The notes: generated from the sequence alone by a model not told the origin. Shown: positions 2,873-37,410, numbered from the stretch's first letter. The stretch is DNA of 64,000 bases from a virus (IMGVR_UViG_3300020465_001196), one strand, 5' to 3'. Numbers and translations: made by a program.

Positions 2873-5734
2873 ATGCCAGGTAAAGGTACAGGTGGAACAC
2901 ATATAAAACATCCAGCACATAGGAATAATGTAAAGGATGAAAAAGTTGATTCAGATCCTAATATAGATAAAAGCCATCCATATTATGCTTACTACCTTGA
3001 AGGTAAAAAATACAAAGACGAAGCCGATAAAGCCAAAGCATCTGAAGTAGCAACTGGGGTATCAGAAAAAAATCAATATGAATTGGACGCAGGAGTATCA
3101 GCAGTTACAAACAATTTATTACCAAGTTGGATTGAAGGTAAAAATCATGTAGGGTATGATAGAGGTACAGACAATACAGGATTAAATTATATTACTGAAA
3201 CTACAGAAGCTCAAGCAAAAGCAGAAAACAACGGAGAATCATTAAGTCAAAAAGATGTACAAGATATAAAAACAAAAGTTGAGAATGCTAATTCCCCTTA
3301 CATCTATAACGATAAAATTATGGGAATGGTTGAAGGTGAAACTAAAGATAAAACGTACGACTTTTTATCTCACAATAAAGAAAAAAGTTTAGAAATAACT
3401 GTTGATCTACCAGCTACAAATTATGCTACAGCAGATGATGGATATCCTAACTATAAAGGAATGGACGATGAATTCAATTATAGAGGAGCATTCCAAAGAA
3501 ATACATTACTTGACTATGATGGTCCAACATATCATTTTGAATTACAAATGTTATCAGATGATGATGCCATTGCGGCACAACGTCATATATTAGAAGGTAA
3601 AACATCTTTTGATGAATGGAGGCCTACTAAGGCACAACCAGTAACTATTGCTGAAACAGGATCAACTGTTTTAAATTTGCAATCATGTATGATTGAAGCA
3701 GTAGCAGGTCCAACGAACAATCAACATCGTGTTACAGGTGCTACAAATTTTCAAATGTCTTTTGCACAACCATTAGGGGTTTCATTTACTAATTTAATTG
3801 TAAATGCGGCAGTACAATTAGGTATGCCAGATGGATTAAAAGCAACATACTTACTAAAATTACATTTTATTGGTAGAGATGCAAAAACAGGTGCAGATGT
3901 TAATCCAATACCAAATACAGAAAGACAATTTTTAATTAATATAGTTGGTGTAGAACAAACTGTTGATACTTCTGGTGGTATATTTAATGTAACAGCCGTT
4001 CGAAGTGGTGACCAGGGAACATACCAACACGTATATTCAACAGATCGTCCAATGGAATTAAGTAATATTAAAACTGTAAATGATATGATGGAAAAACTTG
4101 CAGAAGCAATAAATGTAAATGAAATTGATAAACTAGCAATTGAAAAAGCAATATTAGACGAGTATTATATACACATTGAAGACCATGCAAAAAAAATATT
4201 AGCAGATGATGAAATTGTACCTACTGCTGGAGAAAAAGGAATAGCAAATGCAAACCAGTATGGTGCGAACAACGGTGATCAACAAGATGCAGATGCTAAT
4301 GAAGGATTTGGTGATCAAAGATTATTAAGAACATTTAAAATTCCACAAAATACAGGTTTAAATCGAATTATGGAATTTGCTTTATCACATTCAAGAAAAC
4401 TACAAAATCTAGCAAAAGGTTTTGATGAAAATGATAAAGATCCAGATTCAACCGACTCAGCTAAAATAAAAAAATATAAAAAATATATTTTTAAAATAAA
4501 AGCAGACGTTGTTAATATTGGTTGGGATATGTTACGTAATGAATATGCAAAAGAATATCATTATACTATATCATTATTTCCAACTATTAGACCAGAAATA
4601 TTACAAGGTACATATTCAAAACAAGAAGAAGCAGTAAAACAAAAAGTTAAAGAATTACTAAAACCTGATTTTGGTGAAGGCAAAACAAGAACAAAATTTA
4701 GAGCATTGCGTAAAAGATATGATTATTTGTTTACTGGTATGAATGATAAAGTTTTAAGATTTGATCTTAAATTTAACAATAACTTTTTTATGGCTATGCA
4801 TAGTTATCAAAATTTGTATGATAACATAGATGAAACTGTACAAGAGCAAATAAAAGAATCTGGTGATAGTTTAAGAAAATTTAAACAACAGCAATCTCAA
4901 GTACGTGCGGCGTGGAAGTCATATTTAAAAAGTAAAGCAGATAAAGTAGGCCAAGTAGGTTTTGATGCTACAACAGAAATGGCTTCTTCTGCAACATATA
5001 ATCAATTTAAAAAAGAAAGAGAAGAATTAATAAACCAATATGTAGGTAGAATTCAAGATGGAACTATTGAGGGTGACCAGGGATTAGCCAGTAGATTACA
5101 AGATTTAGATTCATATGATAAAAAATTATCAGAAAACAAAAATAGAGTTGATGGTACTAAACCAAAAGAAGAATTTAAAGGTGGTGGAGCAGATGCATCA
5201 CGCCTACCGCAAGAAAGAATTATTGGTGAATTAATTAATGAAAATGATTTAAGAAACAAAATAGAATCTGGACAAATTCCAACTCACGTAATGTGGGGTG
5301 TAACAAGAGATGCATCGGCTGGTAATTTTAATGATGAAGGACATCCTGAAAACAAAGGTAAGCATCAATTTGATGCTGTAATGCAGGCATCATTGAGTGA
5401 TTTCCAAGCAGATATGGTTCAAATGGATATGGATATTAGAGGAGATATGTATTGGTTAGAAAGTGAAGGTGACCCACGTGCTATAACTTCTTCTTATTAT
5501 GCAGGAGAAAATTATCTATTGTTTAGAGCAATTACAAGTGCAGGTGAACCTGATATAAATACTGGTATAGCAACTCCAGGCGACACTAAAAAAGAACAAT
5601 TACTTAATGGTGTTTATGCTGTTGTAAATGTAACAAGTAGATTTGAAGGTGGATTGTTTACACAAAATATTAAAGGTCCACGTGAAAACTTTATTTACGA
5701 TACAACACTATTAGAAAGTTTTAAGGAAGAATAA
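2873..5734 (+). CDS. Baseplate hub protein (gp27-like), 953 aa
   Basis: Between gp53 and gp5; C-terminal IRGDMYWL...NGVYAVVNVTSRFEGGLFTQ. Confidence 0.6.
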   Translation: MPGKGTGGTHIKHPAHRNNVKDEKVDSDPNIDKSHPYYAYYLEGKKYKDEADKAKASEVATGVSEKNQYELDAGVSAVTNNLLPSWIEGKNHVGYDRGTDNTGLNYITETTEAQAKAENNGESLSQKDVQDIKTKVENANSPYIYNDKIMGMVEGETKDKTYDFLSHNKEKSLEITVDLPATNYATADDGYPNYKGMDDEFNYRGAFQRNTLLDYDGPTYHFELQMLSDDDAIAAQRHILEGKTSFDEWRPTKAQPVTIAETGSTVLNLQSCMIEAVAGPTNNQHRVTGATNFQMSFAQPLGVSFTNLIVNAAVQLGMPDGLKATYLLKLHFIGRDAKTGADVNPIPNTERQFLINIVGVEQTVDTSGGIFNVTAVRSGDQGTYQHVYSTDRPMELSNIKTVNDMMEKLAEAINVNEIDKLAIEKAILDEYYIHIEDHAKKILADDEIVPTAGEKGIANANQYGANNGDQQDADANEGFGDQRLLRTFKIPQNTGLNRIMEFALSHSRKLQNLAKGFDENDKDPDSTDSAKIKKYKKYIFKIKADVVNIGWDMLRNEYAKEYHYTISLFPTIRPEILQGTYSKQEEAVKQKVKELLKPDFGEGKTRTKFRALRKRYDYLFTGMNDKVLRFDLKFNNNFFMAMHSYQNLYDNIDETVQEQIKESGDSLRKFKQQQSQVRAAWKSYLKSKADKVGQVGFDATTEMASSATYNQFKKEREELINQYVGRIQDGTIEGDQGLASRLQDLDSYDKKLSENKNRVDGTKPKEEFKGGGADASRLPQERIIGELINENDLRNKIESGQIPTHVMWGVTRDASAGNFNDEGHPENKGKHQFDAVMQASLSDFQADMVQMDMDIRGDMYWLESEGDPRAITSSYYAGENYLLFRAITSAGEPDINTGIATPGDTKKEQLLNGVYAVVNVTSRFEGGLFTQNIKGPRENFIYDTTLLESFKEE

Positions 5735-8256: not shown

Positions 8257-9549
8257 TTAGGCCACTATAAAGTAAAGTAAACTTACTGCCGCAATGGCCA
8301 TACTTCCTGAATTTAATTCAGAATGTTTGCCACTTAATGCTTTAATAACAACATAAGCAATAAATCCTAGTGCAATACCATAAGCAATATTAAAGGTTAA
8401 TGGCATAATAATTGCCGCCAATACTGCCGGTGCATATTCACTTACATCATCCCATTCAATATCCTTAAGATTTCTTAAGAAGTATGTTGCAATGAATACA
8501 AGTGCAGGAGCCGTTGCAAATGCTGGAATACTCTGCGCCAATGGAGCAACGAATAAACACAATGCAAACAACACAGCAACCGTTACTGCCGTTAGTCCTG
8601 TTTTACCACCTTCTTTAATACCTGCACCAGACTCAATGTATGATGTAGTATTAGAAGTACCTGCTAGTGCACCAACTGATGTTGCAACTGAATCGGCCAA
8701 TAATGCTCTGTCAATATCTTCAACTTCGCCATTCTTATTAACTTTACCAGTTAAGTTTGCAACACTTGTTAGTGTTCCTGCGGTATCAAAAAAGTCTACA
8801 AATAAAAATGCAAATGCGACTCCAATGAAACCTGACGTTGCAATTAAACTAAAGTCCATACTAAATGCATGACTTGGGTTTGGAATACTACCAACTACAC
8901 CGCCCATTTCTGAAATACCAAAAATCCAAGCGATAATACTTGTTGCAATAATACCAATAATAATTGCACCTGGGATACCACGTTTGTCAGCAATTGCCAT
9001 AATAGCAAAACCTAGTCCTGCTAATAGTACGGGCCAACTTGAAATATCTCCTAAGCCAACTAAAGTTGCCGGGTTATCAACAACAACACCTGCATTCTTT
9101 AAACCAATAATAGCAAGGAACAAACCAATACCTGCTCCTACTCCAAGTTTCATACTTCGAGGAATACTATTAATAATATACTTTCTTGCTGGTGTTATAC
9201 TTAAACCAATAAACACTATACCTGCAATGAATACAGCCGCTAATGCCTGTTGATACGTATAGCCCATTCCAAAAATAACACCAAATGCAAAAAAGGCATT
9301 TAGTCCCATTCCTGGTGCTAGTGCTACGGGCCATTTAGCCCAAAGTCCCATTATAAGTGTACCTACTACTGCCGCAATAATTGTTGCAGTAAATACAGCA
9401 CCGAATTCCATTCCGGTACCTTCAGTTGACAATATAGCAGGGTTTACTACCGTGATATATGCCATTGTTAAAAATGTGGCTAACCCAGCCATGATCTCAG
9501 TTTTCACTGACGTCTTGGCTTTTGCTAACCCAAATAGTTTTTCTAACAT
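8257..9549 (-). CDS. NCS2-family (AzgA/PbuG-type) purine permease
   Basis: TFLTMAYI...NP, ALAPGMGLNAFF, DFFDTAGT, TSYIESGAGI...GGKTGLTAV, PLTFNIAYG; many TM helices. Confidence 0.95.
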   Translation of the reverse strand: MLEKLFGLAKAKTSVKTEIMAGLATFLTMAYITVVNPAILSTEGTGMEFGAVFTATIIAAVVGTLIMGLWAKWPVALAPGMGLNAFFAFGVIFGMGYTYQQALAAVFIAGIVFIGLSITPARKYIINSIPRSMKLGVGAGIGLFLAIIGLKNAGVVVDNPATLVGLGDISSWPVLLAGLGFAIMAIADKRGIPGAIIIGIIATSIIAWIFGISEMGGVVGSIPNPSHAFSMDFSLIATSGFIGVAFAFLFVDFFDTAGTLTSVANLTGKVNKNGEVEDIDRALLADSVATSVGALAGTSNTTSYIESGAGIKEGGKTGLTAVTVAVLFALCLFVAPLAQSIPAFATAPALVFIATYFLRNLKDIEWDDVSEYAPAVLAAIIMPLTFNIAYGIALGFIAYVVIKALSGKHSELNSGSMAIAAVSLLYFIVA

Positions 9550-9999: not shown

Positions 10000-11520
10000 T
10001 TACTCCTCTTTATACTCTTGAGATCCTGGATTAGGTCCTTGCGGATTCATGACCCAACCTTCTGTTATGGCTCGTTTTTCTAATTCTTTTTTCATCATAT
10101 TACCTTTAGTTGAATCACCGTCAACTATATTTTGTAATTTTTGTAAATTTGTATCTGGTATTGATTTATACCATTTGACAACATCTTCTGGAAATGTTTT
10201 TTCAAATAATTTGTTTCTTCTTACATCATATTGTGAATAAAATGATTTAAAATCTCTTTCACGTGATTCAATTGAAGATGTACCTTGATGGCCCACTTCT
10301 ACTTCACGCAAGTAGTTTATTAATCTACTTACACCATCTTGTTCCATATCAAAAAATAACTCGTGCTTTTTTCCTACATTTTCTAACCAATTTTCTAAAT
10401 TATCTGCTAAACGTTTTTTAATATCTTGCGGTAACGTTACTGCTGATTGAAAACTTGGAAAACGTAATATGTTAAAGCTCATTGCAGGAGCAAATTGTCC
10501 ATAACGTTCTTTTAGTTTAATCATTTCGTCCATAAATTCTGTAATACTAAACAAGCACAATGCATTGATAGTCATCATCATGTGTAGTTCACGTACATTA
10601 CCTTGTTCCATCATTTTATGAATATTACCTAACCAAGTATCCCATATTAATCCATCACGTATATATTCTGCGTGTGATCCAAATGCTTCGTTTGATGTAT
10701 ATAAATCAAACTCTTTAAACGCATGGCTTTCTTTTGCTAGTCTATCTATTAGTTCTGGTTTAGTTCCTAAATTAGAATTTACTGCTAATCGTACATCACA
10801 ATCTTTGTTGCTTTGCCACCAATTTAGTAATCTCCAAAAGTCTTGCGACATAGTTGCTTCACCACCAGTTACTCTTAATTCTTGTAGTGTGTGTTGTAAA
10901 TCTGATTCCCACCATTTAAAGAAAGCATCTACATAAGGATTGCCTGCATTTTTCTTTCCATATGGCATTGCCCATTTACCATCTTGTTGAAATGCTCTTG
11001 CACCGTCTGATACTAAATTTTGATAAGCACCGCTTTTCTTTATATCATTTTGCCATTGTGTTGAGAAACTAGCATTACAATATGAACAAGCATAATTACA
11101 ATTGGCATCGAAAGCAATTTCTAATGTTTTTAAATTAACATCTTCTTGCCAATCCATTTCACTTGCTTCTTTAATTTGATCTTCTGTGTATATTACAGTT
11201 TTATAAACTCTATCAGAAACATTGTTAGGACCTAGGTCTTCAACTTTCCAACAATATTCACACTCTTTAGGTCTTTCACCACATTGCATTTGTTTACGTA
11301 CCATTTTTTTATATTTGGTATTATGTATTGCTTTTGGATTTGCTAATACTTCTTCTAATGGTATTTTATGTGCAGGTGGGTGATGACAACTTGCTGTTGT
11401 TCCGCTGTTTAACCATACAGTAGCATTATACCATTTGGCACCACACCATGATGTCGATATTGGGTTAATTACCCTATCTCTATACTGTTGGTATGTTTCG
11501 TCTTTACGTTTTTTTGTCAT
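10000..11520 (-). CDS. N-terminal twitch-domain radical SAM protein
   Basis: N-terminal WCGAKW...SCHH...CEYCW, CNYACSYC triad, VTGGE. Confidence 0.9.
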   Translation of the reverse strand: MTKKRKDETYQQYRDRVINPISTSWCGAKWYNATVWLNSGTTASCHHPPAHKIPLEEVLANPKAIHNTKYKKMVRKQMQCGERPKECEYCWKVEDLGPNNVSDRVYKTVIYTEDQIKEASEMDWQEDVNLKTLEIAFDANCNYACSYCNASFSTQWQNDIKKSGAYQNLVSDGARAFQQDGKWAMPYGKKNAGNPYVDAFFKWWESDLQHTLQELRVTGGEATMSQDFWRLLNWWQSNKDCDVRLAVNSNLGTKPELIDRLAKESHAFKEFDLYTSNEAFGSHAEYIRDGLIWDTWLGNIHKMMEQGNVRELHMMMTINALCLFSITEFMDEMIKLKERYGQFAPAMSFNILRFPSFQSAVTLPQDIKKRLADNLENWLENVGKKHELFFDMEQDGVSRLINYLREVEVGHQGTSSIESRERDFKSFYSQYDVRRNKLFEKTFPEDVVKWYKSIPDTNLQKLQNIVDGDSTKGNMMKKELEKRAITEGWVMNPQGPNPGSQEYKEE

Positions 11521-11521
11521 T

Positions 11522-12910
11522 TTATTGCTTACACAAATTATAAAATTCTTCTAATTCCGGAAAAGTTTTGCAGAAGTTTTTATTTCTTCGTTTATCATAT
11601 TCATCTACATATGATACAAAATCTTTTCGTACTTGTTTTATATTTAATCTCTCTTGCGGATTGGGTCCTGCGGCAATGTACTCTTGAAATCGTCTTAATT
11701 TAGCAATTTCAAAATCAAAGAATCCTTTATATGCGTTATCATGTGTTTCTGCATTTTCTAACATAATTTGTACAGAAGGATCAAGCATTTTAGAATAACT
11801 AGGATCAGCAACAACACCACTTAGATAACTAGGATGTCTTAATATTGCTGTATCTAATGTTATTGGTACTCTACGTTCATTGCTATAAAATTCTCTTTTT
11901 AATGGATGTATTATATCTACAAGTTTATGAAAGTTTGGTAAACTTAATAAACCAGTTGTACACATTATTGTTACTTTTGTTTTTGGTAACTCTGTTAATA
12001 CACGACATATATTATCGTACCATTGATTAAAATCTAATCCATCTCTAATATATTCTGCCTGTTCGCCAAATGTATCTACACTAGTGTACAATCTTGTTAA
12101 ACCAATTTTATCATCTAATGTAATACGTTTCATTTTTTCAATGTATTGATCAAAAAGTTTATCTGGTACACATCCATTAGAGTTAATTGCTAATTCTAAT
12201 TCTGGTCTTGGATTATTATTAATATAATCTAAAACTTTAAATGTGTCTTTGGTTAAAAGAGGTTCCCCGCCTGTGATACGAAAAACTTGGAGGTTTTTAT
12301 ACAGGTCGGGAAACCATTTCCAGAATGCGTCAACATAAGGATTATGTTCACGATGAGGAATCGGTAATTTGCCTTCTTTTCGAAGCCATTGTAAATTATT
12401 AAAGTTATCACTTGTAGGATATGCACCCTGTGATTCAATTTCTTCCATCCATGAACTGCTAAATGCAGGTGAACAGTAAGAACATTTTAAGTTGCATACA
12501 TTTGAAAAACTAACCTCAACATAAGTTGGATTAACATTTTCTACACCAACCATTTCAGAAGTTTCTTTTAAAAAAGGTTTAGCCCAGTACTCATGTGATT
12601 TAGAACTTCTATCGCTATAATGTTCTGGACCTAAATCTTCTACGTTCCAACAATACTGACATTCAGGTGGTCGTACACCTTTTAACATCAATTCTCTTTG
12701 TGATTTTTTATACTCTGTGTTATGTAAAGCACTAGGATTATTTTTTAATTCTTCAATAGGTACTTTGTGTGTTCTAGGATGATGGCAACTATGCGTGTGT
12801 CCATATTGCAAGTGTATCGTTGATTGATACCACTTTGCTAGACAGAAACTTGGAGATACAGCATTTAGTTCATCTCTGGTTTGTTTAATCTTAGGTACTT
12901 CATCTGTCAT
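11522..12910 (-). CDS. N-terminal twitch-domain radical SAM protein (paralog)
   Basis: FCLAKW...SCHH...CQYCW, CNLKCSYC, ITGGEP. Confidence 0.9.
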   Translation of the reverse strand: MTDEVPKIKQTRDELNAVSPSFCLAKWYQSTIHLQYGHTHSCHHPRTHKVPIEELKNNPSALHNTEYKKSQRELMLKGVRPPECQYCWNVEDLGPEHYSDRSSKSHEYWAKPFLKETSEMVGVENVNPTYVEVSFSNVCNLKCSYCSPAFSSSWMEEIESQGAYPTSDNFNNLQWLRKEGKLPIPHREHNPYVDAFWKWFPDLYKNLQVFRITGGEPLLTKDTFKVLDYINNNPRPELELAINSNGCVPDKLFDQYIEKMKRITLDDKIGLTRLYTSVDTFGEQAEYIRDGLDFNQWYDNICRVLTELPKTKVTIMCTTGLLSLPNFHKLVDIIHPLKREFYSNERRVPITLDTAILRHPSYLSGVVADPSYSKMLDPSVQIMLENAETHDNAYKGFFDFEIAKLRRFQEYIAAGPNPQERLNIKQVRKDFVSYVDEYDKRRNKNFCKTFPELEEFYNLCKQ

Positions 12911-13917
12911 TTTAACACTTTGTAACGAGTAATTCCGTCAGTTCCTTTCTCTGTCACGAATGCTCCAGAGCGAGGTGGATTCCAATAAACTTTTTTGAAA
13001 AATGCAGAACCTTCTGCACTTAAATCATCTATTTGTAATCCAAGTTTACTTCTTAATTCTTTACCAAGTCTAACAGTTTCATTCCAAAGTTTATCTTTAT
13101 CCCACTGATACTTTTCATGATGGCAAGTTTCATTGCCGCCTGCAAATTGTGGTTTAACTGTTTCATTCCAGAATTTAGTATGCCATTCAAAATCTCTTAC
13201 ATTAACAAAATCCCAATCTGTGCAATTGGTCATATAACAACCAAGTCTTGTACCGTACAATGCCCATAAACCATTTTCAACATCCATTCCAACTGATGCC
13301 CAAATTAAAAGTCTATGATAATTTTTATCATGTATATTCTTTTCAAAGTTAACCGGATCTACTTTAAATCCTCTGTCTAATGACATCTTAACACCTTCTC
13401 TAAACCCTGCTCTGTATGCCTGATAAGGTGTTGCATTATTATATACGTGTGAAAAGCATTCATTTAATTGTATGTAATTCATATCCCAACAAAAATCTAC
13501 TGCTGATCCTTCTGATTCTGCGGCTTCATGTGTTTTCATATCAAGTACTGCTTGTTTAGGCCAACACTTAATACCACCATTACCATACATTAATCCATTA
13601 ATGTTATTATAACCTGTAAAAGATATTACGGATTGATTTAAATTTTCTAAATCATAATCAGAAAAATCAAGTTCTAAGTCCATTAGTTTTTCCCAATTAA
13701 CCAATTTATTATCACCGTCTACAGTAATAAATCTATTAGTATCACTTCTGTTTGCACAGGCTTTATGTGCCGCATCTGATCCTTCAACACCATGCGTATG
13801 TTTTGCCCATGGCACTTTATTTACAATATCTGCCCAATGTTCTTTGTAATTAGGTTCATCATAAGACAGATAAAATATATCAATATCTGCAATTTTTATT
13901 TTTTTATCAGCACTCAT
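12907..13917 (-). CDS. GT-A fold glycosyltransferase-like protein
   Basis: DIFYLSYDEPN, AHKACA, FITVDGDN (DxD), YGNGGIKCW. Confidence 0.7.
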   Translation of the reverse strand: MSADKKIKIADIDIFYLSYDEPNYKEHWADIVNKVPWAKHTHGVEGSDAAHKACANRSDTNRFITVDGDNKLVNWEKLMDLELDFSDYDLENLNQSVISFTGYNNINGLMYGNGGIKCWPKQAVLDMKTHEAAESEGSAVDFCWDMNYIQLNECFSHVYNNATPYQAYRAGFREGVKMSLDRGFKVDPVNFEKNIHDKNYHRLLIWASVGMDVENGLWALYGTRLGCYMTNCTDWDFVNVRDFEWHTKFWNETVKPQFAGGNETCHHEKYQWDKDKLWNETVRLGKELRSKLGLQIDDLSAEGSAFFKKVYWNPPRSGAFVTEKGTDGITRYKVLK

Positions 13918-13920: not shown

Positions 13921-14535
13921 TTATATCTCCACCATTAAATAATCATCATAAATTCTTCTCGTGTATACATTACAAGTATTTAACTCTCCTGTGTAACTGG
14001 CTGTTAACTTATCTTGTGTAAGTAACTGTACAACAGGTACATAATAACTTGCAAATAAATCATGTGGGTCACCTGTTTGTGTTATAAAGAAGTTTAGTAT
14101 ACTTGTTCCATTTATTACAAGCATTTCTGGATTAGTGAACTTTTGTTGTTTACCAGTAAGTTGATACTTACTTGCCATATATGCTTTTAGTGTAGGATTA
14201 AATTCAAAAGTAACTGTTTTTTCTTTTTTATTATGTACAACTCTAATATCATAACTTAAATCATCATCTGTTCCTGATCTAATTTTATGTAAAGTTTTAT
14301 CAATTTCACGTATGTTTAAATGTATTTCTTTTTTCTTAATTGTAAAATCATCTGGATCTTTTGGATTTAATTCTATATAATACTGTGATTGTACTTTTGT
14401 ACCATCAACAAATTCTTTTATGTCATCAAACTCAACTTCATAATAAGGATGTATTACAGAACTATCAACTTCTCGAACAATTTTAACAATGTCTTTTGTT
14501 TCTAAATCATAATATAATATTCTAGACGTTGACAT
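13921..14535 (-). CDS. Hypothetical protein in cluster A
   Basis: ORF coupled to its neighbours; start set at MSTSR. Confidence 0.6.
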   Translation of the reverse strand: MSTSRILYYDLETKDIVKIVREVDSSVIHPYYEVEFDDIKEFVDGTKVQSQYYIELNPKDPDDFTIKKKEIHLNIREIDKTLHKIRSGTDDDLSYDIRVVHNKKEKTVTFEFNPTLKAYMASKYQLTGKQQKFTNPEMLVINGTSILNFFITQTGDPHDLFASYYVPVVQLLTQDKLTASYTGELNTCNVYTRRIYDDYLMVEI

Positions 14536-15397
14536 ATACTTGCTCCTCATATCTTTTTATAATTTCATCTGTAAGGAAATTCTTTGTAACATAATGTACT
14601 GGTAATGTTTGTTGATAGTTTCCAATTTTTAATCTACAATCTGGTGTAAAGTAAGCCCCAATATGTTTAGTCCAATCTTCTGTTGAACCTGATTTCCAAT
14701 TTTGTAATCTTGCTTTCATGTGAACAAATGTTGGACAAGTTACTGCTGGATTTGTTGATTGTTCTACAATGTCTAACATTTTCATTGCCATTGCATATAC
14801 AACATCAGCACTTAAAAACTCTTGTTTAGGTAATACTAATGCTGTGTCTCTATAATATTCCCAACGTCTAAATATATCTTCAACAACACTAAAGTATTCA
14901 TTTACCATATTTGATTTTTTATTAAAATAGAAAAATGCTGTATATACATTTGGTAGCATATTTGGTCCAAATGTTTTTCTGTAATGGTTATCAATTATTG
15001 TTTCACCTCGATATGTTTGAACGTTTGTTGTTGCCATCATATCCCAATGTGTAAAGTATTCCCACCAATGGCTTAGGTCTGTCATAAACAACATATCAGT
15101 ATCTAGTATTACTGTTTGCTCATAAGGTGTGCAATGGTAGTATTTCCATTTGTTGTTAATTTTCCAATCTGCCATTTGAGCGTCATCTTCAAAAGGTAAT
15201 TCAATAACTTCATCAAATACTGCTCTATAATGTTCTGGTACATCTGATTTATTAATAACAGCAATAGATATATTTTTAATTTGTGATTGTGTATGCTTAA
15301 TACTTAATGCTAATGCATAAGCCATACGTACATAATTAATAGATTTTCCATCTGCATCTTTAGAATTCTGTGCTATTACCAAATAACCTTGTTTCAT
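14522..15397 (-). CDS. GT-A (GT8-like) nucleotide-diphospho-sugar transferase
   Basis: GYLVIA, TVILDTDMLF (DxD), C-terminal FVHMK. Confidence 0.7.
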   Translation of the reverse strand: MKQGYLVIAQNSKDADGKSINYVRMAYALALSIKHTQSQIKNISIAVINKSDVPEHYRAVFDEVIELPFEDDAQMADWKINNKWKYYHCTPYEQTVILDTDMLFMTDLSHWWEYFTHWDMMATTNVQTYRGETIIDNHYRKTFGPNMLPNVYTAFFYFNKKSNMVNEYFSVVEDIFRRWEYYRDTALVLPKQEFLSADVVYAMAMKMLDIVEQSTNPAVTCPTFVHMKARLQNWKSGSTEDWTKHIGAYFTPDCRLKIGNYQQTLPVHYVTKNFLTDEIIKRYEEQVYVNV

Positions 15398-15948
15398 TTG
15401 TTTACCTTATTGTAAATTTGTATCCAATTATCAACCTTTTCAATATTGTCAGCATCATACATAGCATTGTAACTATGCTTCATAAAGTACGTCTTAAGTC
15501 CAATATTAGCACCGGCTACTGCGTTTGTCCACTTGTCTTCCACCCATATAGCACCACTTCCTTTGTATTGTGATAGCCATTTGTTTTTTGGTTCCATAAA
15601 TGGAATAATATCAATTCTTGCGAACACATCTGGAAATAAACTTTCAATATTTTGTTTTCGTAATGCGTTTGCATATTGATCTACACCCATTGATGTACAA
15701 GCAATAATTTCCCAACCCTCTTGTTTAAACTTTGGTAATATTTCTTGTGCATCTCTTAAAGGAGGCAAAAACCCAATCCATGCAGTATTATTATAATATT
15801 TTATAATGTCTGCTGTTTGATCTGATTGTGCAAATGTTGTAGGATCCCACAACGATACTTCTGGATAATACTGTTTTAAATATTTTTGAAAATGGTCTGA
15901 CCAGTTTAATACTACGCCGTCTATGTCTGTTAATAAAATTTTATGCAC
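15394..15948 (-). CDS. HAD-superfamily phosphatase (5'-nucleotidase-like)
   Basis: LLTDIDGV motif I; WVEDK...NAVAG motif IV. Confidence 0.8.
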   Translation of the reverse strand: MHKILLTDIDGVVLNWSDHFQKYLKQYYPEVSLWDPTTFAQSDQTADIIKYYNNTAWIGFLPPLRDAQEILPKFKQEGWEIIACTSMGVDQYANALRKQNIESLFPDVFARIDIIPFMEPKNKWLSQYKGSGAIWVEDKWTNAVAGANIGLKTYFMKHSYNAMYDADNIEKVDNWIQIYNKVNK

Positions 15949-16825
15949 TATACATCTCCACTATTTTTTTACTCTGTCGTACAATTGAATACTTGTTCAT
16001 TACATGGACATTAACGCCATCTGTACGTGCTGGAATAAAGTTACCAGGCTCACTTATTTTCTCTAATAAAAATGATAGTGATCCTTTTGAATTTACATTA
16101 TGAAGTTCATCATAATCTAATGTGTGTTGTAAAAAGTCGACTGGGAGGTTTTTAACTAATCGACTTTTTGCAAAACCATTAAACATATGAACAGCAATAC
16201 TAAACGCATGATCATTTCTAAAGTTATATGTTGTAATACCATAAAGTGTTTTAAAATAAGGATAGTTTGATTTAATTGATTCTAGTAAATTAAAAAATAT
16301 TTCTGTCTCAGGAGTTTTTCTAAAAAAGAAAACTGTTGCCCAATAAAAATCAATACCAAAGTCATCAACACGATCAAATTCTTGATGATGTCTTCCTGAT
16401 AATAAATCATAACTTCTTCTGTTAATCATTAAATCTTCTTTATGTCCCCAAATTTGATTTAATGTATCATTGCAAATTAGATAGTCAACATCAATAACTA
16501 GTGTTTCATCATATGGGGATTGTGTAAAAACTGTTGACCTATTAATATTATAAAATTGCAATAAGTTAACTGTATGTCTTGTATCTCTATAACGTTTGTT
16601 ATTTTCTACTTTGCGTCTTGGTTGTATTTTTATATTTTCAAAAGTACTGTCAATTAAACTTTGATCATATTGTGTTTTTAAATGTCGTACAGTACCTTCG
16701 TCAGTAATCAAAGTAATAGCATCAATACCCATATGATGTTTAATCATTAGAGCATTGGCTAATGCTATACTACCATAATCAATTTCAGAATTGTTATGTG
16801 CAAAAAATACTATACCTTGACTCAT
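15941..16825 (-). CDS. GT-A (GT8-like) transferase, paralog of 14522..15397
   Basis: GIVFFA, TLVIDVDYL (DxD), WATVFFF, VHVMNK. Confidence 0.7.
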   Translation of the reverse strand: MSQGIVFFAHNNSEIDYGSIALANALMIKHHMGIDAITLITDEGTVRHLKTQYDQSLIDSTFENIKIQPRRKVENNKRYRDTRHTVNLLQFYNINRSTVFTQSPYDETLVIDVDYLICNDTLNQIWGHKEDLMINRRSYDLLSGRHHQEFDRVDDFGIDFYWATVFFFRKTPETEIFFNLLESIKSNYPYFKTLYGITTYNFRNDHAFSIAVHMFNGFAKSRLVKNLPVDFLQHTLDYDELHNVNSKGSLSFLLEKISEPGNFIPARTDGVNVHVMNKYSIVRQSKKIVEMYSA

Positions 16826-17239: not shown

Positions 17240-18178
17240 TTATGCACTTACTTCTGTAGTTGTAGCAGAACTTGGGTTAGCAACTTGTACATAAGAGGCG
17301 TTATCCGCTCTTAATGTAGTAATTGTGCTAGTTAAAGTTCCATCAACTGCGTCAGCGCCTGTCCAAGCTGTACCTTCATTTGGAGCAGTACCTAAACCGC
17401 CACCAGTGTATGTACCAGTTTGTGCCGCGTGATCATCTTTGAAGTAAACAGTAAAAGTTAAAACAGTTGCTGAGCCATAAGCCGCGTTTGCTTTTGCTTC
17501 AATTGTCCAATCATTCGCTGAATAGTTTCCTTGACCTGTTGCTGTAAAAATTTGTTGATTTGAAGTTGTTAAATCATCAAAACCTACAGAGGCCGCTGTT
17601 CCACCTGATCCAGTGTATGTAGTTGCACCTTCGGCAAATTTTACTGTGCCTGCGTTTGACAATAAGTTAGTCCAATCAGTGTTTTGATCTGTTGAAGAAC
17701 CACCTGCTCGTGATCCTGCAAATCTAATTTCACCGCCTGAATTAAAAAAGTGTCTAGCCGCATTCGCTGATGCAAAAGTTACTGTTAATATGTGTTGAAC
17801 TGTTCCAGTCCATGATGCTGTTCTTGATGAAGTTACACCAGAATCAGTAGCCATATTAGACGCATCTGCAGTCAGCTTGTTATTTGTAATTAATGTGATA
17901 TCTGCCTCTAAGTTAGATAATGGCAAAATGTTTCCACCAGCTGATACTGTGTTTGACGCATTCGTCAACGTAGTACCTTGGTGGTTAGCACCTTTCTGTA
18001 ATCCAGAAAGTAAACTGTTCCATTGTGCCGCTGTAATTGTGTTACCTGCAGAAACCGCCGCGATTTCTGAAATACCATAACCACTATCTGCTGAGCCAGT
18101 ACCAATAATTGTGTTAATGTTTGTAGCAAATGTGTTATAATCACTTGCTGTAATTGTATCACCTTGTTGGTAAGCCAT
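17240..18178 (-). CDS. Virion structural protein (Thr/Ser/Gly/Ala-rich)
   Basis: Internal repeat YQQGDTITASDYN / VSAGNTITAAQWN; end of the late structural operon. Confidence 0.65.
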   Translation of the reverse strand: MAYQQGDTITASDYNTFATNINTIIGTGSADSGYGISEIAAVSAGNTITAAQWNSLLSGLQKGANHQGTTLTNASNTVSAGGNILPLSNLEADITLITNNKLTADASNMATDSGVTSSRTASWTGTVQHILTVTFASANAARHFFNSGGEIRFAGSRAGGSSTDQNTDWTNLLSNAGTVKFAEGATTYTGSGGTAASVGFDDLTTSNQQIFTATGQGNYSANDWTIEAKANAAYGSATVLTFTVYFKDDHAAQTGTYTGGGLGTAPNEGTAWTGADAVDGTLTSTITTLRADNASYVQVANPSSATTTEVSA

Positions 18179-19500
18179 TATTTTACTCCTATTGCAATTG
18201 GAATTAATTCGACTTCTTCCGAAGTCTTGTCGACAAGACTGCGGCCAATAACCGCACGGTAATCAACATTGTTCTCGTCTTCTACTAGTTGTGCTACGCC
18301 CGGTAGTGAACTAGAAACAATACGATCACCTTTACTTACTGTGCCGATAACTTTCGTTAGCACTCGACCTTGGTAAGCAATATATGGATGGGTTGCATCA
18401 TCTCCAGCTAAAGCATTTAACTTTAGACCTGGTTTTTGTGATACTACGCCAAATACTTTTGTATCTTTAAATTTTGTTGTTTGTGTAACTTCTTTGTCAC
18501 CTGCTAGTGCAACAACTGTTCCACAATCATATTCATCATCAGCTTCATAACGTTCTGCTATATCACCATATTGTGCAATCATTGCCTGTGCATAAACGTT
18601 TCTGAAAAACTTACCATCACCACCTAAATCAATTGATGCTGAACCTTGTTGCGTTGAAGATGGTTGACCTGCTGTACCGTGAGCAGGTGGAACAATATGT
18701 CCTTGTACTGTTTGTGGATTTGTTTGTGTTAATCTTAAAAATGATGCCGCACTATGACCACCTAATTGGTCTGCATTAACACCTTCTGATTGTAAACTAT
18801 CCCAAGTGTTAACTCCGTGAATCAATGTACCTGTTTGTGTAGTTGTTGATGAACTTACTGTAATCGCCGCTGTAAAGCCATCAAAGATTGCTTTTTCAAC
18901 TGTTACACCTGCACCTGATCCTGGATCAGCAAATCTAAAGTGTGCTGGAGAAACAACTCTTGCTACTTCAACTGCACCTGATTTTTTTTGTAAAACTTCT
19001 GCAATTACTTGAATTTTGTCTGAAACAACATAACCGTTGTTATTTGCCGCCGCATCATCAACGTGTGTTGCAGTTAATTCTATAACCTGTGTATATGATT
19101 TATCTGATGCTGATGCAAATTGTTTGTAACCTGTTGCAGAACCATCTACATTAACATTTAATTGTTTTGTAGATGTATTGTACCATAGAGAACCTTTTGT
19201 AGTTGCATGAGGATATGTTGTGCCTACGTGTACTGTTACTGGATGCCAACCTGTTGAACCTGATAATCTAACTTTTAAAGATTGATTTGTTGTATCCCAC
19301 CAAAGTTGTCCTTCTTGTGGATCAGCTGGTGCTGATGTATTTGCATTGTTTTCTAATAATTTTATAAAATCTTCGGCAATAGTTTCACCGTAACCAGTGA
19401 AGTTTTTACCAATTAATGTAATACCACCAATAGAAGCAGTAGTACCGTCATTTACCGTTGAAACAATACTTCCTCTTGTGTTGTTTACTGTATATGGCAT
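18178..19500 (-). CDS. Tail fibre/structural protein with C-terminal peptidase G2-like chaperone domain
   Basis: LIGKNFTGYGE...LENNAN, GQLWWD; C-terminal AQYGDIAERY...GTVV...VFGVVS...GRV...KGDRIVSS. Confidence 0.7.
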   Translation of the reverse strand: MPYTVNNTRGSIVSTVNDGTTASIGGITLIGKNFTGYGETIAEDFIKLLENNANTSAPADPQEGQLWWDTTNQSLKVRLSGSTGWHPVTVHVGTTYPHATTKGSLWYNTSTKQLNVNVDGSATGYKQFASASDKSYTQVIELTATHVDDAAANNNGYVVSDKIQVIAEVLQKKSGAVEVARVVSPAHFRFADPGSGAGVTVEKAIFDGFTAAITVSSSTTTQTGTLIHGVNTWDSLQSEGVNADQLGGHSAASFLRLTQTNPQTVQGHIVPPAHGTAGQPSSTQQGSASIDLGGDGKFFRNVYAQAMIAQYGDIAERYEADDEYDCGTVVALAGDKEVTQTTKFKDTKVFGVVSQKPGLKLNALAGDDATHPYIAYQGRVLTKVIGTVSKGDRIVSSSLPGVAQLVEDENNVDYRAVIGRSLVDKTSEEVELIPIAIGVK

Positions 19501-19565: not shown

Positions 19566-19573
19566 TATTTATA
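19566..19573 (-). promoter_or_regulatory. Late promoter TATAAATA
   Basis: Exact T4 late consensus upstream of 19500. Confidence 0.75.
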
Positions 19574-20269: not shown

Positions 20270-20277
20270 TATTTATA
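20270..20277 (-). promoter_or_regulatory. Late promoter TATAAATA
   Basis: Exact consensus upstream of 20255. Confidence 0.7.
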
Positions 20278-20296: not shown

Positions 20297-23200
20297 TTAT
20301 TCATTTCGCAAGTATTTTGCTATGTCTCCAGTTGAATTTGTAGTATCAAGCACACTATATCCCGTATTGTTCCAGAATCCGTTGTTTCTAGCTCCTGGTA
20401 TATTTGTATCTCCACTGTATACCTCAGTGCTATTTGCATGAGTTAAAATTGTTGTGCCGTGCGTTCCTCGTACAATATCTAATAAATCATTACCTTGAAT
20501 TCTATGGTATTCAATTCTTTCATTGCCAACATATATTACTCCTGGCTGTCCTGAATATGTTCCAGCAGTAGTTACACCAACGTCTTTTGGTTGAGGTAAT
20601 AAACTAGCATTGGCTACACTAATTTTATTTGAGTATGGAGTAACTGCCGCGGTTAATGTTGTATGGTCTGTTGTTGAGTTTCCTCCACCACTGTCAACAA
20701 ATTTTTGTCTTAGATATTTTACAGTTCCGTATGGTTTGTAATGAATTTGGTATTGTGATAAATCACCTGTTCCTGTATAGTTTGGTGCACTACCAGAAAC
20801 ACCTTCGTATGTTTTAACAGTTATGAATAAACTTTCTTTTGGTTTTAATGGTACAAGTTCTTCTGGATTTGGATCTTTGTCTGGTCTTACAAATCCTGCT
20901 GAATCTAATTTAGATTTTACTAGCACCCATTTACCTGCATCATAATCAGTTTCAAATGTTGCTGACGCTGTGTGCGTTTCGTTTGTGTAATAAATTAATT
21001 CATCAACTAAATCCCAACGTGATTCTTGTAGTGTTGTTTCACTTGCTAAATTTTTATGTGTTACGTTTGCAACATAAACTTTGTTGTTGTGTTTTACAAT
21101 ATCACCAACTGTATAACTTGTTGATGCTGACCATGCCGTAAAGTGAGTTAAGTCTGAATATTTTACAAATGAATCTTTTGCAAAAGATGTACCTGTTTTC
21201 CATTGTAAGTTTTCATTTACAAATTTTGAATCATACCAAACTTGAGTTGCTTCATCATCATAACCAATTTCAGTATTTGTATCTAATGCTGTAGCATCCC
21301 ATCTCAAACTATCCCAAGCAAAAGTAGTTAAGTCTTTTCCAATTCTATCTCTGTTTACAACAAAGCCAATTGGTTGAACATCTAAATCTTTAAATGACGT
21401 AATTGCATTTTCTAAATTAGTTGTAAACGTACTTACTTGAGTTACGTTTGCAGTATCTACATTCGCTAACTCATTTTTAAAATAATATTTTGCTAATCGA
21501 TCAACGTGTGTTGATTCAGGTGTTGACGTTTTCACTTTGTCAATCAATGCCGCATCAGTTGGTGCAGTAGTTGGACTAAAGTTGTAAGATATTAATTTAC
21601 CTGCTTGTACATCTGTAACAAAAACTCCTGAAGTATGATTAGCAGTAACTTGCCAGTAACCACCTCTATATTTTAAAGGTGTACCTGCTGTATATGATGT
21701 TGCCGTTGCCCATGTATTAATACTGTTTGTTGAAGGTGACAACAATGTTATCTTAGAACTAACTCTATCAAATAATAATTTAGTTGTAACTTTTGGTGTA
21801 GGATTAGTTGTACCGCTACCACTATTGTTTATTGTGTAATCAGCAGTTGATGTAAAGTCACTCATTGCTAAATTCATATTTTCTCTTGCTGGTGCTTTTT
21901 TACTTAAGAAGTCTCTAATTTTTGCTTTGTAAGGTTTAACTTCTTCAATGTAAGTTTTAATATCATCAAATGGATCTTTTTCATAAGATGCTTTTTGTTT
22001 TAATGTTGTATCTTGTTGAATAACATTTATGTATGTTGTTTTAAATAACCAATCAGTATTACTTTGTTCACTTGAAATATATCTTATTAATGCAAACAAT
22101 ACATCATTTTGTTTACCAAGTTTATCACTTATGAATACATTTAATCTTAATGCTGATATATACTGTCTTAATTCATTTGCTAGTGCTGTAGAATTATCTT
22201 CTGTATATACTGTTGTTTTTAATTTAGTTGTTGCAGTTTGTAAACCAATTCTTACTAATGATAAATTGTCTGAATCAATTGACGTTGTTGTCCCTGCCAA
22301 ATAATCAGCATCAGTATATTTGTATAATGCCCATTTAGATGCGTAATCATAATTTACTTTAATTACATCGCCTTCGTTAAGGTTAGCAGTAACAATGTCT
22401 GCTTTGTAATCAACAATTTCATCAATTATAGTATTATCATTAAATGTGCTATTGTAATACCAATTTGCTTTTTCATGGTACACAGATGTTGTAACTGTAC
22501 TATCCCAATTTGAATGTTCAACGTCTAAACTAATATTAGCAGTAATGTTATTCAATGCTTGGAATAAAACTTTTCTTGCATTTTTAATATTAACAAACCA
22601 AGTTTGTCTTGGTCTTACTTTAGAACCATATCTATCATTTAAAGATATTGATGTATCAGGAACAGTATTTCCAACAATATCATATCCACAAATACTGTCA
22701 GTCATTTTATTCCAAATTTGATTTGGAATTTGTGTATCTGAATATCCTTCTCTAATTAACAACCATTGTGCGTGTGGTTTATCTGTTTTATCTTTTGTTT
22801 TTCTATTTCTATAATTAATTTGTAAAACACTATTGTCTTTAGTTAAGTTATTAACAACATTTGCAATCATAAATGAATTAGGTGATATTGGTGCAAAATA
22901 ACTTAACCCTTGTGTTAATGGTGAAGTCATTAAGTTTGAAACTGTTTGTGTATCACTTGTTCTAGAATCCATTTGAGGTACAGTTGTTTTGTTTTTAACC
23001 CAATAATAATAAGTTGTAATATTTGCATTTGTATATGGATCAGTAGTAATTTCACTTACATAATTTGTTGTTGACTTAACTGTTCCTGTTCCTAAATACG
23101 AATCTGGAAGTTGTGATGATTTAACCCATTCATAAATGTCAATTGTAGATCCTTCAAATAATCTACCCCAATGTTTTCTTCTATAATTATTGTCATGACT

Positions 23201-32002: not shown

Positions 32003-32005
32003 TAT

Positions 32006-35959: not shown

Positions 35960-36444
35960 TAATATCCGCCTCCACTTGTATTTCCGTTAACGTTAAATTC
36001 TATTGACATTTTTTCTACCATATTTTGAGGTAATATTATTAGTGCTAAATTAACAATAATACCGTGTTCAAAACCAACAACGTTTACACTTGTTAACGAT
36101 ACTCTTGGATCTTGTGCAACAATTTGTCTAGCATCTTCTTCGACAATTGATTTTGTTTGTTCATCTAATGGATTATATAAATGGTCCCAGATAATGCTAC
36201 CAAAATCAGGTAGCATTACTCTTTCGCCTTTTGCAGTCATAAAGTGATTGTAAATGTCTTGTTTTATGAGGTCAGCATCGTATAACATATTATTTTTTGC
36301 ATTAGGATTATTGGAACTAAATCCTTTATAAATCCTTTGACTTACATACGTACTATTAGTAGTTGCTCCGCTATCAGAAGGAGAGATTGTTCTGGATGCA
36401 ACTGTTCTATCTGTTCCGTAATTAACCGGTGTATTATATGCCAT
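35959..36444 (-). CDS. gp25: Baseplate wedge/sheath initiator (gp25-like)
   Basis: YKGFS, HFMTAKGERVMLPDFGS, QDPRV. Confidence 0.9.
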   Translation of the reverse strand: MAYNTPVNYGTDRTVASRTISPSDSGATTNSTYVSQRIYKGFSSNNPNAKNNMLYDADLIKQDIYNHFMTAKGERVMLPDFGSIIWDHLYNPLDEQTKSIVEEDARQIVAQDPRVSLTSVNVVGFEHGIIVNLALIILPQNMVEKMSIEFNVNGNTSGGGY

Positions 36445-36517: not shown

Positions 36518-36525
36518 TATAAATA
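36518..36525 (+). promoter_or_regulatory. Late promoter TATAAATA
   Basis: Exact consensus 8 nt before ATG 36534. Confidence 0.7.
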
Positions 36526-36805: not shown

Positions 36806-37369
36806 ATGAGTAAAAAATATGATCAGTATACAGCGGCGGAAAGAATAGACGCCCATTTACACGACAATGATATTCATTATCTGACAGGTGAAATTACTCA
36901 AAGCAACGTTGAAGATGCAATCAAATGGATACTATCTTGTAACCTAAACAAAAAACCAAAGAAAACATTAAAGTTATATATTAATACAGTTGGTGGAGAT
37001 TTATACGAAGCATTTGCACTAATTGATGTTATGAAAAACAGTTATCATCATATATCTACTATTGGAATTGGTGCTGTTATGAGTGCAGGATTTTTAATTT
37101 TTGCAAGTGGTAAGCAAGGTGAAAGATATATTGCTAAAAATACCGGAATATTAAACCACCAACATTCAGATGCTATGGAATCAAAAATGCACGATATGAG
37201 ATCACAGATGAAAGAAAATAACAACTGTGAATTAAGATGTTTAAACATATTACGTGAAGCAACTGGGTTTAGTTTGGCCGATGTACGTAAAAAACTTAAT
37301 ACTCCAAGTGATCAATATTTTACTGCTAGACAGTTAGTTGATTTAAAAATAGCAGACCATATTTTATAA
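36806..37369 (+). CDS. clpP: ClpP-like ATP-dependent Clp protease proteolytic subunit
   Basis: LYINTVGGD, AVMSAG (Ser), HQ (His), SDQY (Asp); ACTAAATA box at 36779. Confidence 0.85.
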   Translation: MSKKYDQYTAAERIDAHLHDNDIHYLTGEITQSNVEDAIKWILSCNLNKKPKKTLKLYINTVGGDLYEAFALIDVMKNSYHHISTIGIGAVMSAGFLIFASGKQGERYIAKNTGILNHQHSDAMESKMHDMRSQMKENNNCELRCLNILREATGFSLADVRKKLNTPSDQYFTARQLVDLKIADHIL

Positions 37370-37375: not shown

Positions 37376-37404
37376 TTGCTTTTTTCCAATTATTTGTGTA
37401 TAAT
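37376..37404 (+). promoter_or_regulatory. Sigma70 promoter for cluster B (leaderless)
   Basis: TTGCTT-N17-TATAAT with TG extension, ATG 6 nt downstream. Confidence 0.6.
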
Positions 37405-37410
37405 ACTTGT

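Follow-up and report, generated by a model that had tools for sequence, protein, structure and literature searches.

Four N-terminal-twitch radical SAM genes of a T4-like aquatic phage lie among glycosyltransferase-like genes and may encode sugar-modifying enzymes

RESULTS

An N-terminal twitch module in four phage radical SAM enzymes

The stretch of DNA analyzed here (the window) comprises 64,000 nucleotides of a virus, IMGVR_UViG_3300020465_001196, and contains four genes for radical S-adenosylmethionine (SAM) enzymes, which we call A1, A2, B1, and B2 after their two subtypes. All four are members of NCBIfam family NF033640 (N_Twi_rSAM, "twitch domain-containing radical SAM protein"), and nothing sets them outside this family. 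They are set among glycosyltransferase-like genes, and we weigh below whether they act on sugars.

11522-12910, minus strand: A1, A-type N-terminal-twitch radical SAM enzyme, 462 amino acids; NF033640 score 345 bits (344.7)
10000-11520, minus strand: A2, A-type N-terminal-twitch radical SAM enzyme, 506 amino acids; NF033640 score 298 bits (298.3)
46244-47494, plus strand: B1, B-type N-terminal-twitch radical SAM enzyme, 416 amino acids; NF033640 score 411 bits (410.7)
48687-49883, plus strand: B2, B-type N-terminal-twitch radical SAM enzyme, 398 amino acids; NF033640 score 393 bits (393.1)

An open reading frame (ORF) check of the window showed all four genes to be intact. B1 probably starts at the Met codon at 46265, giving a product of 409 amino acids, because its close homologs have this length. 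A preliminary description, made from the sequence alone, had recognized the genes as N-terminal-twitch radical SAMs and had proposed a hidden Markov model search against NCBIfam as a check. Indeed, in this search all four proteins score 298 to 411 bits against a curated cut-off of 170 bits (E-values of 9e-89 to 6e-123), and their matches run end to end, from model positions 1-2 to 393-398 of 398. NCBIfam lists the model as a "subfamily" and assigns it no function, in agreement with the same description.

The Pfam SPASM/twitch match lies ahead of the Radical_SAM match in both B1 (residues 21 to 85, then 131 to 286) and B2 (residues 13 to 82, then 121 to 282); the Radical_SAM score exceeds the gathering score in two of the four proteins and falls under it in the other two (21.5 and 27.4 versus 29.5 bits). 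A four-way alignment shows invariant twitch cysteines at C26, C45, C87, and C90 and a likewise invariant core, C141-x3-C145-x2-C148, in the numbering of the A2 product. Across an alignment of 115 sequences, seven Cys, G-G-E, R100, S150, N244, S276, and R288 are invariant, with C138, C142, C145, and G213-G214-E215 among these positions; the family-wide invariants comprise three Arg in all and also E-Y, and a D-x2-R...F-P-E motif is conserved in the helical C-terminal region. An AlphaFold (AF2) model of A1 (mean predicted local distance difference test score [pLDDT], 97.4; predicted template modeling score, 0.94) places a Cys-flanked beta-hairpin and helices with twitch topology (residues 23 to 90) before beta-1 of the barrel, followed by a six-stranded partial TIM barrel of six beta/alpha units and, at the C terminus, a helical domain of about 100 residues. 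The CxxxCxxC motif, the GGE motif, and the partial (beta/alpha)6 barrel are features of the radical SAM superfamily, and the model matches 40 radical SAM structures at Z scores of 8 to 14. Pfam order, aligned cysteines, and the A1 model thus agree that the twitch module precedes the CxxxCxxC core. Since SPASM and twitch domains are described as C-terminal extensions (PMC9012708), "inverted architecture," the term used in the preliminary description, is a fair one for N_Twi_rSAM.

A SPASM domain, with its two auxiliary clusters and seven-Cys motif (C-x9-15-G-x4-C...C-x2-C-x5-C-x3-C...C), was considered for the N-terminal module and rejected, because only the first half of the pattern is present and no C-x5-C-x3-C follows the C-x2-C. 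We therefore read the module as a twitch domain with one auxiliary cluster; the A clade (both clades are defined below) has four Cys in this module and the B clade has five. A Pfam search found no RRE/PqqD domain in any of the four proteins.

Two clades and four old lineages

The two subtypes distinguished in the preliminary description are real and correspond to separate deep clades, with the motifs C-x-AKW...S-C-H-H (A) and C-x-[LIM]PW...C-C (B). Among 462 relatives, 184 have the AKW/CHH motifs and about 110 the xPW/CC motifs, and a maximum-likelihood tree of 173 sequences recovers an A clade with support of 0.90 (104 of 107 leaves) and a B clade with support of 0.87 (53 of 58 leaves). At the position just before the second twitch ligand (S41 in A1, C39 in B1), 100% of the 104 A-type sequences have Ser and 96% of the 53 B-type sequences have Cys. 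This switch residue might serve as a hydrogen-atom donor or as a fifth ligand. The family as a whole conserves no additional Cys; clade B alone has one, at the switch position, and its enzymes may therefore give a different outcome from those of clade A.

Identity within the pairs is low, at 38 to 40% between A1 and A2 and 30% between B1 and B2. The genes run in the order A1-A2-B1-B2 in four phage-like contigs (L002, L016, L019, and L021), where the orthologs are 39 to 43% identical to A1, 48 to 50% to A2, 41 to 45% to B1, and 40 to 41% to B2. The same four lineages form one array in a Bacteriovoracaceae locus, L005, with B1-B2 ahead of A1-A2. Across the phage loci and L005, positional orthologs are 38 to 58% identical overall, and those of A2, which also occur in L003, are 48 to 58% identical. 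Judged by identity and positional orthology, A1, A2, B1, and B2 are four old, separate orthologous lineages and not recent duplicates, which argues for four different jobs.

The preliminary description had named tandem genes and a second, distinct pair. A1 and A2 are tandem, with A2 starting 1 nucleotide past the A1 stop codon; B1 and B2 are not strictly tandem, because two minus-strand genes, an SGNH-like gene (47442-48278) and a SufE gene (48268-48669), sit between them. In relatives both pairs are contiguous and interleaved with SGNH genes and genes for TEK-motif glycosyltransferases (see below); in the window the set is split, with one pair on either side of a structural block at 20297-36444.

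An operon with a tail-fiber-like gene at its head and A1-A2 at its end

The gp25 baseplate gene of the window, its ORFs of 3901 and 1317 residues, its tail-fiber-like gene, and its ClpP gene agree with a T4-like phage. GC content is 0.28 to 0.38, no tRNA genes were found in the window, and a cultured-phage database gave only a match at 65% identity over 10% of the query to hypothetical proteins of Ralstonia phage RsoM2USA. The minus-strand genes from 19500 down to 10000 are tightly packed and include the following.

18178-19500, minus strand: tail-fiber-like structural gene, head of the operon that ends in A1-A2; matches PHROG virion structural and tail fiber families
15941-16825, minus strand: GT8-like glycosyltransferase candidate, paralog 2; shares a BLAST cluster and family alignment with paralog 1
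15394-15948, minus strand: HAD/NT5C-type phosphatase; Pfam NT5C 4e-6, HAD_2 1e-3
14522-15397, minus strand: GT8-like glycosyltransferase candidate, paralog 1; family profile compared with glycogenin
12907-13917, minus strand: f7, GT-A (GT2-like) candidate glycosyltransferase, translationally coupled to A1; Atlas clusters and hhalign

The operon runs from the tail-fiber-like gene through two genes of unknown function, a GT8-like gene, the HAD/NT5C gene, the second GT8-like gene, one more gene of unknown function, and f7 to A1 and A2. The order tail-fiber-like gene, f18, f19, two GT8-like genes, f7, and two A-type genes recurs in the four phage-like contigs named above and in L076. The profile of the GT8-like family matches glycogenin (GT8) chains with an E-value of 0.005 over the N-terminal 100 residues, which include the DxD region.

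The ATG of A1 overlaps the stop codon of f7 (ATGA), and both phage loci and the bacterial locus L037 retain the f7-A1 pair. No Pfam match was found for f7; its nearest Atlas clusters are automatically named "Glycosyltransferase 2-like" at 0.98, and hhalign against Pfam-confirmed GT2 neighbors aligned the nucleotide-binding and DxD region (E of 9e-4, probability of 22%). Comparison with the GT8-like family by hhalign gave nothing, and a PDB profile search with the f7 alignment gave no meaningful match.

Two giant ORFs (20297-32002, minus strand, 3901 residues; 32006-35959, minus strand, 1317 residues) lie directly upstream of this operon and downstream of the gp25-like baseplate gene, and are possible counterparts of the VrlC-type gene found at the border of the pelagimyophage host recognition cluster (PMC7029224). 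On the other side, the operon adjoins a gene for an NCS2-like permease of 430 amino acids (8257-9549, minus strand) with about 10 transmembrane-like segments; a stretch of about 100 bases is 75% identical in nucleotide sequence to a gene that Acinetobacter phage assemblies annotate as "yieG."

A plus-strand enzyme island around B1 and B2

B1 and B2 lie in a second group of genes.

37396-38097, plus strand: SGNH/GDSL-like hydrolase or acyltransferase paralog; family profile compared with GDSL protein 4rsh
38648-39796, plus strand: TEK-motif GT-B glycosyltransferase paralog; family alignment with invariant R, E, and E-K
39780-40808, plus strand: TEK-motif GT-B glycosyltransferase paralog; same alignment and BLAST cluster
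40720-41589, plus strand: SGNH/GDSL-like paralog; SGNH family alignment
41579-42016, plus strand: small P-loop kinase (APS-kinase-like); Pfam AAA_33 2e-10, APS_kinase 2e-8
42324-43094, plus strand: SGNH/GDSL-like paralog; SGNH family alignment
43318-44637, plus strand: TEK-motif GT-B glycosyltransferase paralog; same alignment and BLAST cluster as the other TEK paralogs
45244-46272, plus strand: TEK-motif GT-B glycosyltransferase, directly upstream of and overlapping B1; AF2 model
47442-48278, minus strand: fourth SGNH-like paralog, between B1 and B2; hhalign against the SGNH family, probability 82%, E of 1e-5
48268-48669, minus strand: SufE-type sulfur-transfer protein; Pfam SufE 4e-34

The four TEK paralogs are predicted to fold as GT-B glycosyltransferases, which have two Rossmann-like domains and a donor site in the C-terminal one, on the basis of a model of the 45244-46272 product (pLDDT of 80.5). 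The top 50 matches of this model in a Foldseek search of the PDB are all GT-B glycosyltransferases (TM-scores of 0.3 to 0.49); SdgB is the best (E of 1.2e-5), and T4 beta-glucosyltransferase (4e-5, rank 6), GtfA, TarM, BshA, and FUT13 (rank 50) are among them. A PDB profile search with the TEK family alignment gave no meaningful match. Assignment to GT10 is a lead only, from an Atlas score of 0.80 and the FUT13 match at rank 50. The SGNH profile matches 4rsh with an E-value of 1e-4, and its G-C-S, G-x-N, and D-x-x-H-P blocks are conserved. The SufE gene is divergent from B2 across an 18-nucleotide gap, and its product may help supply Fe-S clusters to the phage radical SAM enzymes.

With one GT-B family, two GT8-like genes, one GT-A-like gene, and four SGNH-like genes in the window, the glyco-gene context claimed in the preliminary description is largely confirmed. 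Pfam and PHROGs searches on the phage neighbors were mostly empty, and profiles of two further conserved phage neighbors (fam 49 and fam 50) gave no match in the window. Genes for a ClpP protease (36806-37369), an AlgH/DUF179-like protein (44649-45263), and a small SET-domain protein (50592-50903) also lie in or beside the island, and a homolog of ribosomal protein bL12 (L7/L12) is encoded at 51883-52260 on the minus strand (Pfam Ribosomal_L12, 3.5e-22, with an L12 N-terminal dimerization domain).

The match between the TEK protein and T4 beta-glucosyltransferase raises the possibility that the product of the module is a DNA base or nucleotide that is both glycosylated and radical-modified, and ThyA and DHFR genes do lie nearby in related phage contigs. 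However, all GT-B enzymes match the TEK protein equally weakly, ThyA and DHFR are ordinary T4-like genes, and chromosomes of bacteria also encode the same radical SAM enzymes, among genes for surface glycans, flagellin, and exporters. DNA-modification genes are early genes in T4, and the late-promoter words and tail-fiber linkage of the present module are atypical for such a role. We consider DNA hypermodification highly improbable.

Late-promoter words and the likely site of action

The word TATAAATA, a T4-type late promoter consensus, occurs five times in the window.

19566-19573, minus strand: TATAAATA, intergenic, 65 nucleotides upstream of the tail-fiber-like gene
36518-36525, plus strand: TATAAATA, in the divergent gap ahead of the plus-strand island
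20270-20277 (minus strand), 49860-49867 (plus strand), and 5554-5561 (plus strand): TATAAATA, other copies

These 5 copies compare with 15.1 +/- 3.8 expected, and 100 of 100 shuffled sequences had at least 5; the copies that do occur lie in gaps or just upstream of gene blocks. Depletion and placement together suggest that the word is functional and selected against elsewhere, and the copies ahead of the two gene blocks are thus putative promoters that would direct late expression. Scans for sigma-70 promoters and terminators found no more sites in the window than in shuffled sequence.

A scan for transmembrane segments found none in the module enzymes. Within the module it flagged only a 118-amino-acid ORF (41971-42327) and a segment of ClpP that we read as a buried stretch of hydrophobic core; the permease, used as a control, gave 10 segments. 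These results bear on whether the enzymes tailor sugars of a host surface polysaccharide, such as O-antigen or capsule, and thereby block superinfection. The host recognition cluster of pelagimyophages carries glycosyltransferases, GT8 being the commonest, together with radical SAM cassettes in a hypervariable region, and modification of the host O-chain is the role favored for these glycosyltransferases (Zaragoza-Solas et al. 2020, PMC7029224). Bacterial relatives of the four enzymes also lie beside Wzm/Wzt-type ABC-2 transporters and arrays of GT4 and GT2 genes. Against this, apart from the 118-amino-acid ORF, the module holds no membrane protein, flippase, polymerase, or polyprenyl-phosphate transferase, and gene blocks behind late-promoter words, in an operon with a tail-fiber-like gene, fit a virion product better than early conversion of the host. 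These counterpoints are not decisive, because host machinery could be used, but a host-surface target appears doubtful to us. For an enzyme set that acts on sugars, a glycan on a virion protein (tail fiber or other) is in our view the likeliest phage acceptor, ahead of membrane-bound host O-antigen, because the enzymes look soluble, late-promoter words are present, and the operon holds a tail-fiber-like gene.

Relatives in phages and predatory bacteria

A profile built from the four proteins found 22,087 representatives at an E-value of 1e-3 or below, and 5,809 at 1e-30 or below, in a library clustered at 50% identity. The matches include tandem double and triple fusions, and the fusion partners include GT2 (P0266), TPR (P0325 and P0308), Sel1 (P0289), and a subtilase fragment. 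P0266 is a continuous ORF of 794 amino acids (L078, 10001-12385) that joins an N_Twi radical SAM enzyme to a C-terminal GT2 domain, in an array of nine radical SAM genes, five GT2 genes, and an FAD amine-oxidase-like gene. The P0325 locus (L079) has a sugar epimerase/C-methyltransferase, RmlD, and GT2 nearby. Close phage homologs form arrays of 4 to 6 copies beside genes for DegT, NDP-sugar (nucleoside diphosphate sugar) epimerase/dehydratase, and GFO_IDH_MocA.

The preliminary description had placed the family mostly in uncultured marine and aquifer sequences. Uncultured aquatic phages do carry it, but this range is too narrow, as Bdellovibrionota-type predatory bacteria carry it too. A scan of species-representative genomes found 75 loci, mostly in metagenome-assembled genomes (MAGs) of Bdellovibrionota and with megabase contigs among them; one 3.7-Mb chromosome has nine matches at at least 5 places. 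In an even sample of this phylum, 31 of 151 genomes have an above-cut-off match, with up to 11 per genome, compared with 0 of 14 control genomes.

Clustered bacterial neighbors confirmed by Pfam are led by GT4 (27 copies in 12 loci) and GT2 (17 copies in 6 loci), and others are Wzm/Wzt-type ABC-2 transporters, DegT, NDP-sugar epimerase, carbamoyltransferase, an FAD amine-oxidase-like protein, and a B12 radical SAM enzyme. On the protein side, flagellin, type IV pilin-like, TPR, PqqD, Peptidase_S74, and S26-like genes cluster with the family. We also made an unselected tally of 145 immediate neighbors at 38 non-redundant bacterial loci, which has no matched random-locus control. The leading classes are GT2 (6), GT4-type (6), other radical SAM enzymes (5), flagellin (4), and methyltransferases (4), followed by sugar epimerase (3), GDSL (3), carbamoyltransferase (2), PqqD (2), and S74 (2). 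The preliminary description had held that family neighborhoods lacking glyco genes would refute a sugar-acting role; bacterial neighborhoods contain GT2, GT4, DegT, epimerase, and carbamoyltransferase genes and, in addition, the radical SAM-GT2 fusion, so the proposal is not refuted on this ground.

A stand-alone gene for a PqqD-family protein of 96 amino acids, a type that normally serves in peptide recognition, lies directly beside A-type genes in L015, L017, L030, L064, and L069, accompanied by pilin-like, TPR, S26-like, and Peptidase_S74 genes. The cassette of Bdellovibrionota MAGs to which these genes belong encodes a Peptidase_S74 protein of the endosialidase-chaperone type, 150 amino acids long, as well as membrane proteins that are TPR or resemble type IV pilin; it was seen in these five loci (L015, 5646-5936; L069, 11764-12216) and in L020, L022, and L028. 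Its recurrence hints at a protein or peptide partner.

These neighbors would fit a rival explanation in which the targets are amino-acid residues in proteins or peptides (a tail fiber in the phage; pilin, flagellin, or a small secreted peptide in bacteria), modified by cross-linking, epimerization, or oxidation, while the glycosyltransferases decorate the same protein independently. Most characterized SPASM/twitch enzymes modify residues of proteins or peptides, flagellin is among the commonest immediate neighbors of the family (4 of 145), TPR and Sel1 fusions occur, and the phage operon is headed by a tail-fiber-like gene. However, profiles of PqqD, S74, and pilin made from the bacterial neighbors and run against all six frames of the window gave no match, and the four proteins have no RRE. 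Further, the radical SAM-GT2 fusion and the alternating radical SAM/GT2 array in L078 tie the family to sugar transfer, and many bacterial loci have only GT2, GT4, DegT, or epimerase neighbors and no candidate precursor. Flagellin and pilin loci are classic protein-glycosylation islands, and such neighbors therefore fit a surface-protein glycan equally well. We regard modification of protein residues as possible, though unlikely, and continue to prefer a sugar substrate. A maturase of ribosomally synthesized and post-translationally modified peptides (RiPPs), an assignment that calls for a PqqD-like element, fused or adjacent, and a precursor peptide gene, was rejected for the four proteins on the two window results just given, PqqD and RRE; with PqqD adjacent in some bacterial relatives, the family as a whole is not cleared of a RiPP-type role.

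Comparison with known twitch and SPASM enzymes

BtrN, the 2-deoxy-scyllo-inosamine dehydrogenase of butirosin synthesis (PDB 4M7T), is the founding twitch enzyme; its reaction is the two-electron oxidation of a secondary alcohol, its substrate is sugar-like, and a DegT-type aminotransferase catalyzes an adjoining step. It has the same single auxiliary [4Fe-4S] site as the phage enzymes, C...G-x4-C...C-x2-C, and the twitch of B1 aligns with that of BtrN (residues 13 to 94 versus 161 to 242; E of 0.002). No sequence likeness between B1 and BtrN was found outside the twitch, and A1 had no sequence match in the PDB. The twitch of BtrN is C-terminal, whereas that of the phage enzymes is N-terminal and their barrel is followed by the family-specific helical domain of about 100 residues. 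Membership in the BtrN family was rejected on these grounds, the twitch being N-terminal and only the B1 twitch region aligning. The auxiliary cluster of BtrN is ligated by four Cys and is a proposed electron acceptor (PMC9012708). The four-Cys cluster of N_Twi_rSAM would be fully ligated, like that of BtrN and in contrast to that of MoaA.

HygY, NeoN, and AprD4, radical SAM carbohydrate epimerases and dehydratases, are likewise twitch-type enzymes of glycoside pathways that abstract hydrogen from a sugar carbon. Their auxiliary domains are C-terminal, and the epimerases use a dedicated Cys as hydrogen-atom donor; N_Twi_rSAM has no family-wide extra Cys.

A VIA fold search returned SkfB (6EFN; Z of 14.0), BlsE (7VOB; 13.1), MoaA (1TV7; 12.4), SuiB (12.4), and DesII (11.6), with matches spanning 220 to 238 residues; PFL-AE, viperin, and anSME were also matched. 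Similarly, Foldseek matched the radical SAM model to BlsE, SkfB, AprD4, and anSME (E of 8e-5 to 1e-3). Identities are 12 to 16%, query-normalized TM-scores are 0.36 or lower, and no match stands out. By fold and sequence N_Twi_rSAM belongs to the twitch/SPASM branch, but because enzymes that act on peptides, nucleotides, and sugars are all among the matches, the comparison assigns no substrate.

DISCUSSION

We conclude that the four enzymes most likely modify a sugar or a sugar decoration, with a rough probability of 0.55 for a sugar substrate. The best explanation of their sequences is that A1, A2, B1, and B2 are working, non-redundant N_Twi_rSAM enzymes, with predicted activity. The ordered set travels with genes for soluble glycosyltransferase-like, SGNH-like, kinase, and phosphatase proteins and sits in the tail-fiber ("host recognition") region of T4-like aquatic phages, and its bacterial relatives sit in surface-glycan and flagellin loci of predatory Bdellovibrionota-type bacteria.

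Several observations weigh against a sugar substrate. The best fold match is the peptide maturase SkfB, albeit nearly tied with BlsE, MoaA, SuiB, and anSME. PqqD adjoins A-type genes in five bacterial loci, and the TPR and Sel1 fusions exist. Glyco families are the commonest class in the neighbor tally, yet they make up about 12% of neighbors, most of which have no Pfam match. Within the window, the GT8-like (E of 0.005) and GT-A-like (hhalign probability of 22%) assignments are weak, and profiles for the NDP-sugar synthesis enzymes DegT, epimerase, and carbamoyltransferase find nothing. Literature searches for NF033640 and for an N-terminal twitch found no paper and no assayed member, in line with the preliminary description of a family of unknown function, and searches for "twitch domain-containing radical SAM" returned general reviews and annotations only.

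If the enzymes do act on sugars, SAM would be reductively cleaved at the [4Fe-4S] cluster of the CxxxCxxC motif, and the resulting 5'-deoxyadenosyl radical would take hydrogen off a sugar carbon, either in an activated sugar or in a residue of a glycan built by the neighboring transferases. An anionic substrate, for instance an acidic sugar or a nucleotide sugar, would be in keeping with the three invariant Arg. A second [4Fe-4S] cluster, held by the four twitch Cys and fully ligated as in BtrN, could accept the second electron to give a keto sugar, a possible feed for the DegT-type aminotransferases seen in relatives. Alternatively, the radical could be quenched in a redox-neutral change such as epimerization. 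The preliminary description had proposed sugar dehydrogenation, epimerization, or deoxygenation as candidate reactions, and its interpretation is partly supported overall. Four different enzymes would then serve four different positions or steps.

A more specific version of this proposal, which we put forward tentatively and as improbable in all its parts together, is that A1-A2-B1-B2 form a dedicated radical toolkit for editing glycans linked to protein, which would be the phage's own tail fibers and, in predatory bacteria, flagellin or pilin, with the Ser/Cys switch separating oxidizing (A) from redox-neutral or reducing (B) enzymes. Such a toolkit would perform several oxygen-independent C-H functionalizations on sugars already attached to protein.

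Part of this picture is already known: NF033640 is catalogued, and radical SAM cassettes and GT8 genes are mentioned for pelagimyophages (PMC7029224). That study names the cassettes in passing, without the N-terminal-twitch family, the four lineages, or the Bdellovibrionota link. The present analysis adds the positional orthology of the four lineages, the Ser/Cys switch between clades, the putative late-promoter words, and the lead from PqqD and S74 genes.

With 5,809 clusters in the stringent search above, N_Twi_rSAM is a very large and uncharacterized family. Abundant marine phages retain its members as ordered sets of several enzymes in their host-recognition region, and predatory bacteria have an expanded number of them. 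The window contributes a compact four-enzyme version that flanks a structural block and has a SufE gene alongside. If the substrate is a glycan, the family would represent radical chemistry on carbohydrates that is as yet unexplored, and it might generate variation in the surface structures of phage or host. A toolkit acting on protein-linked glycans, if real, would be a new class of glycan-editing enzymes and a new route by which phages vary host recognition.

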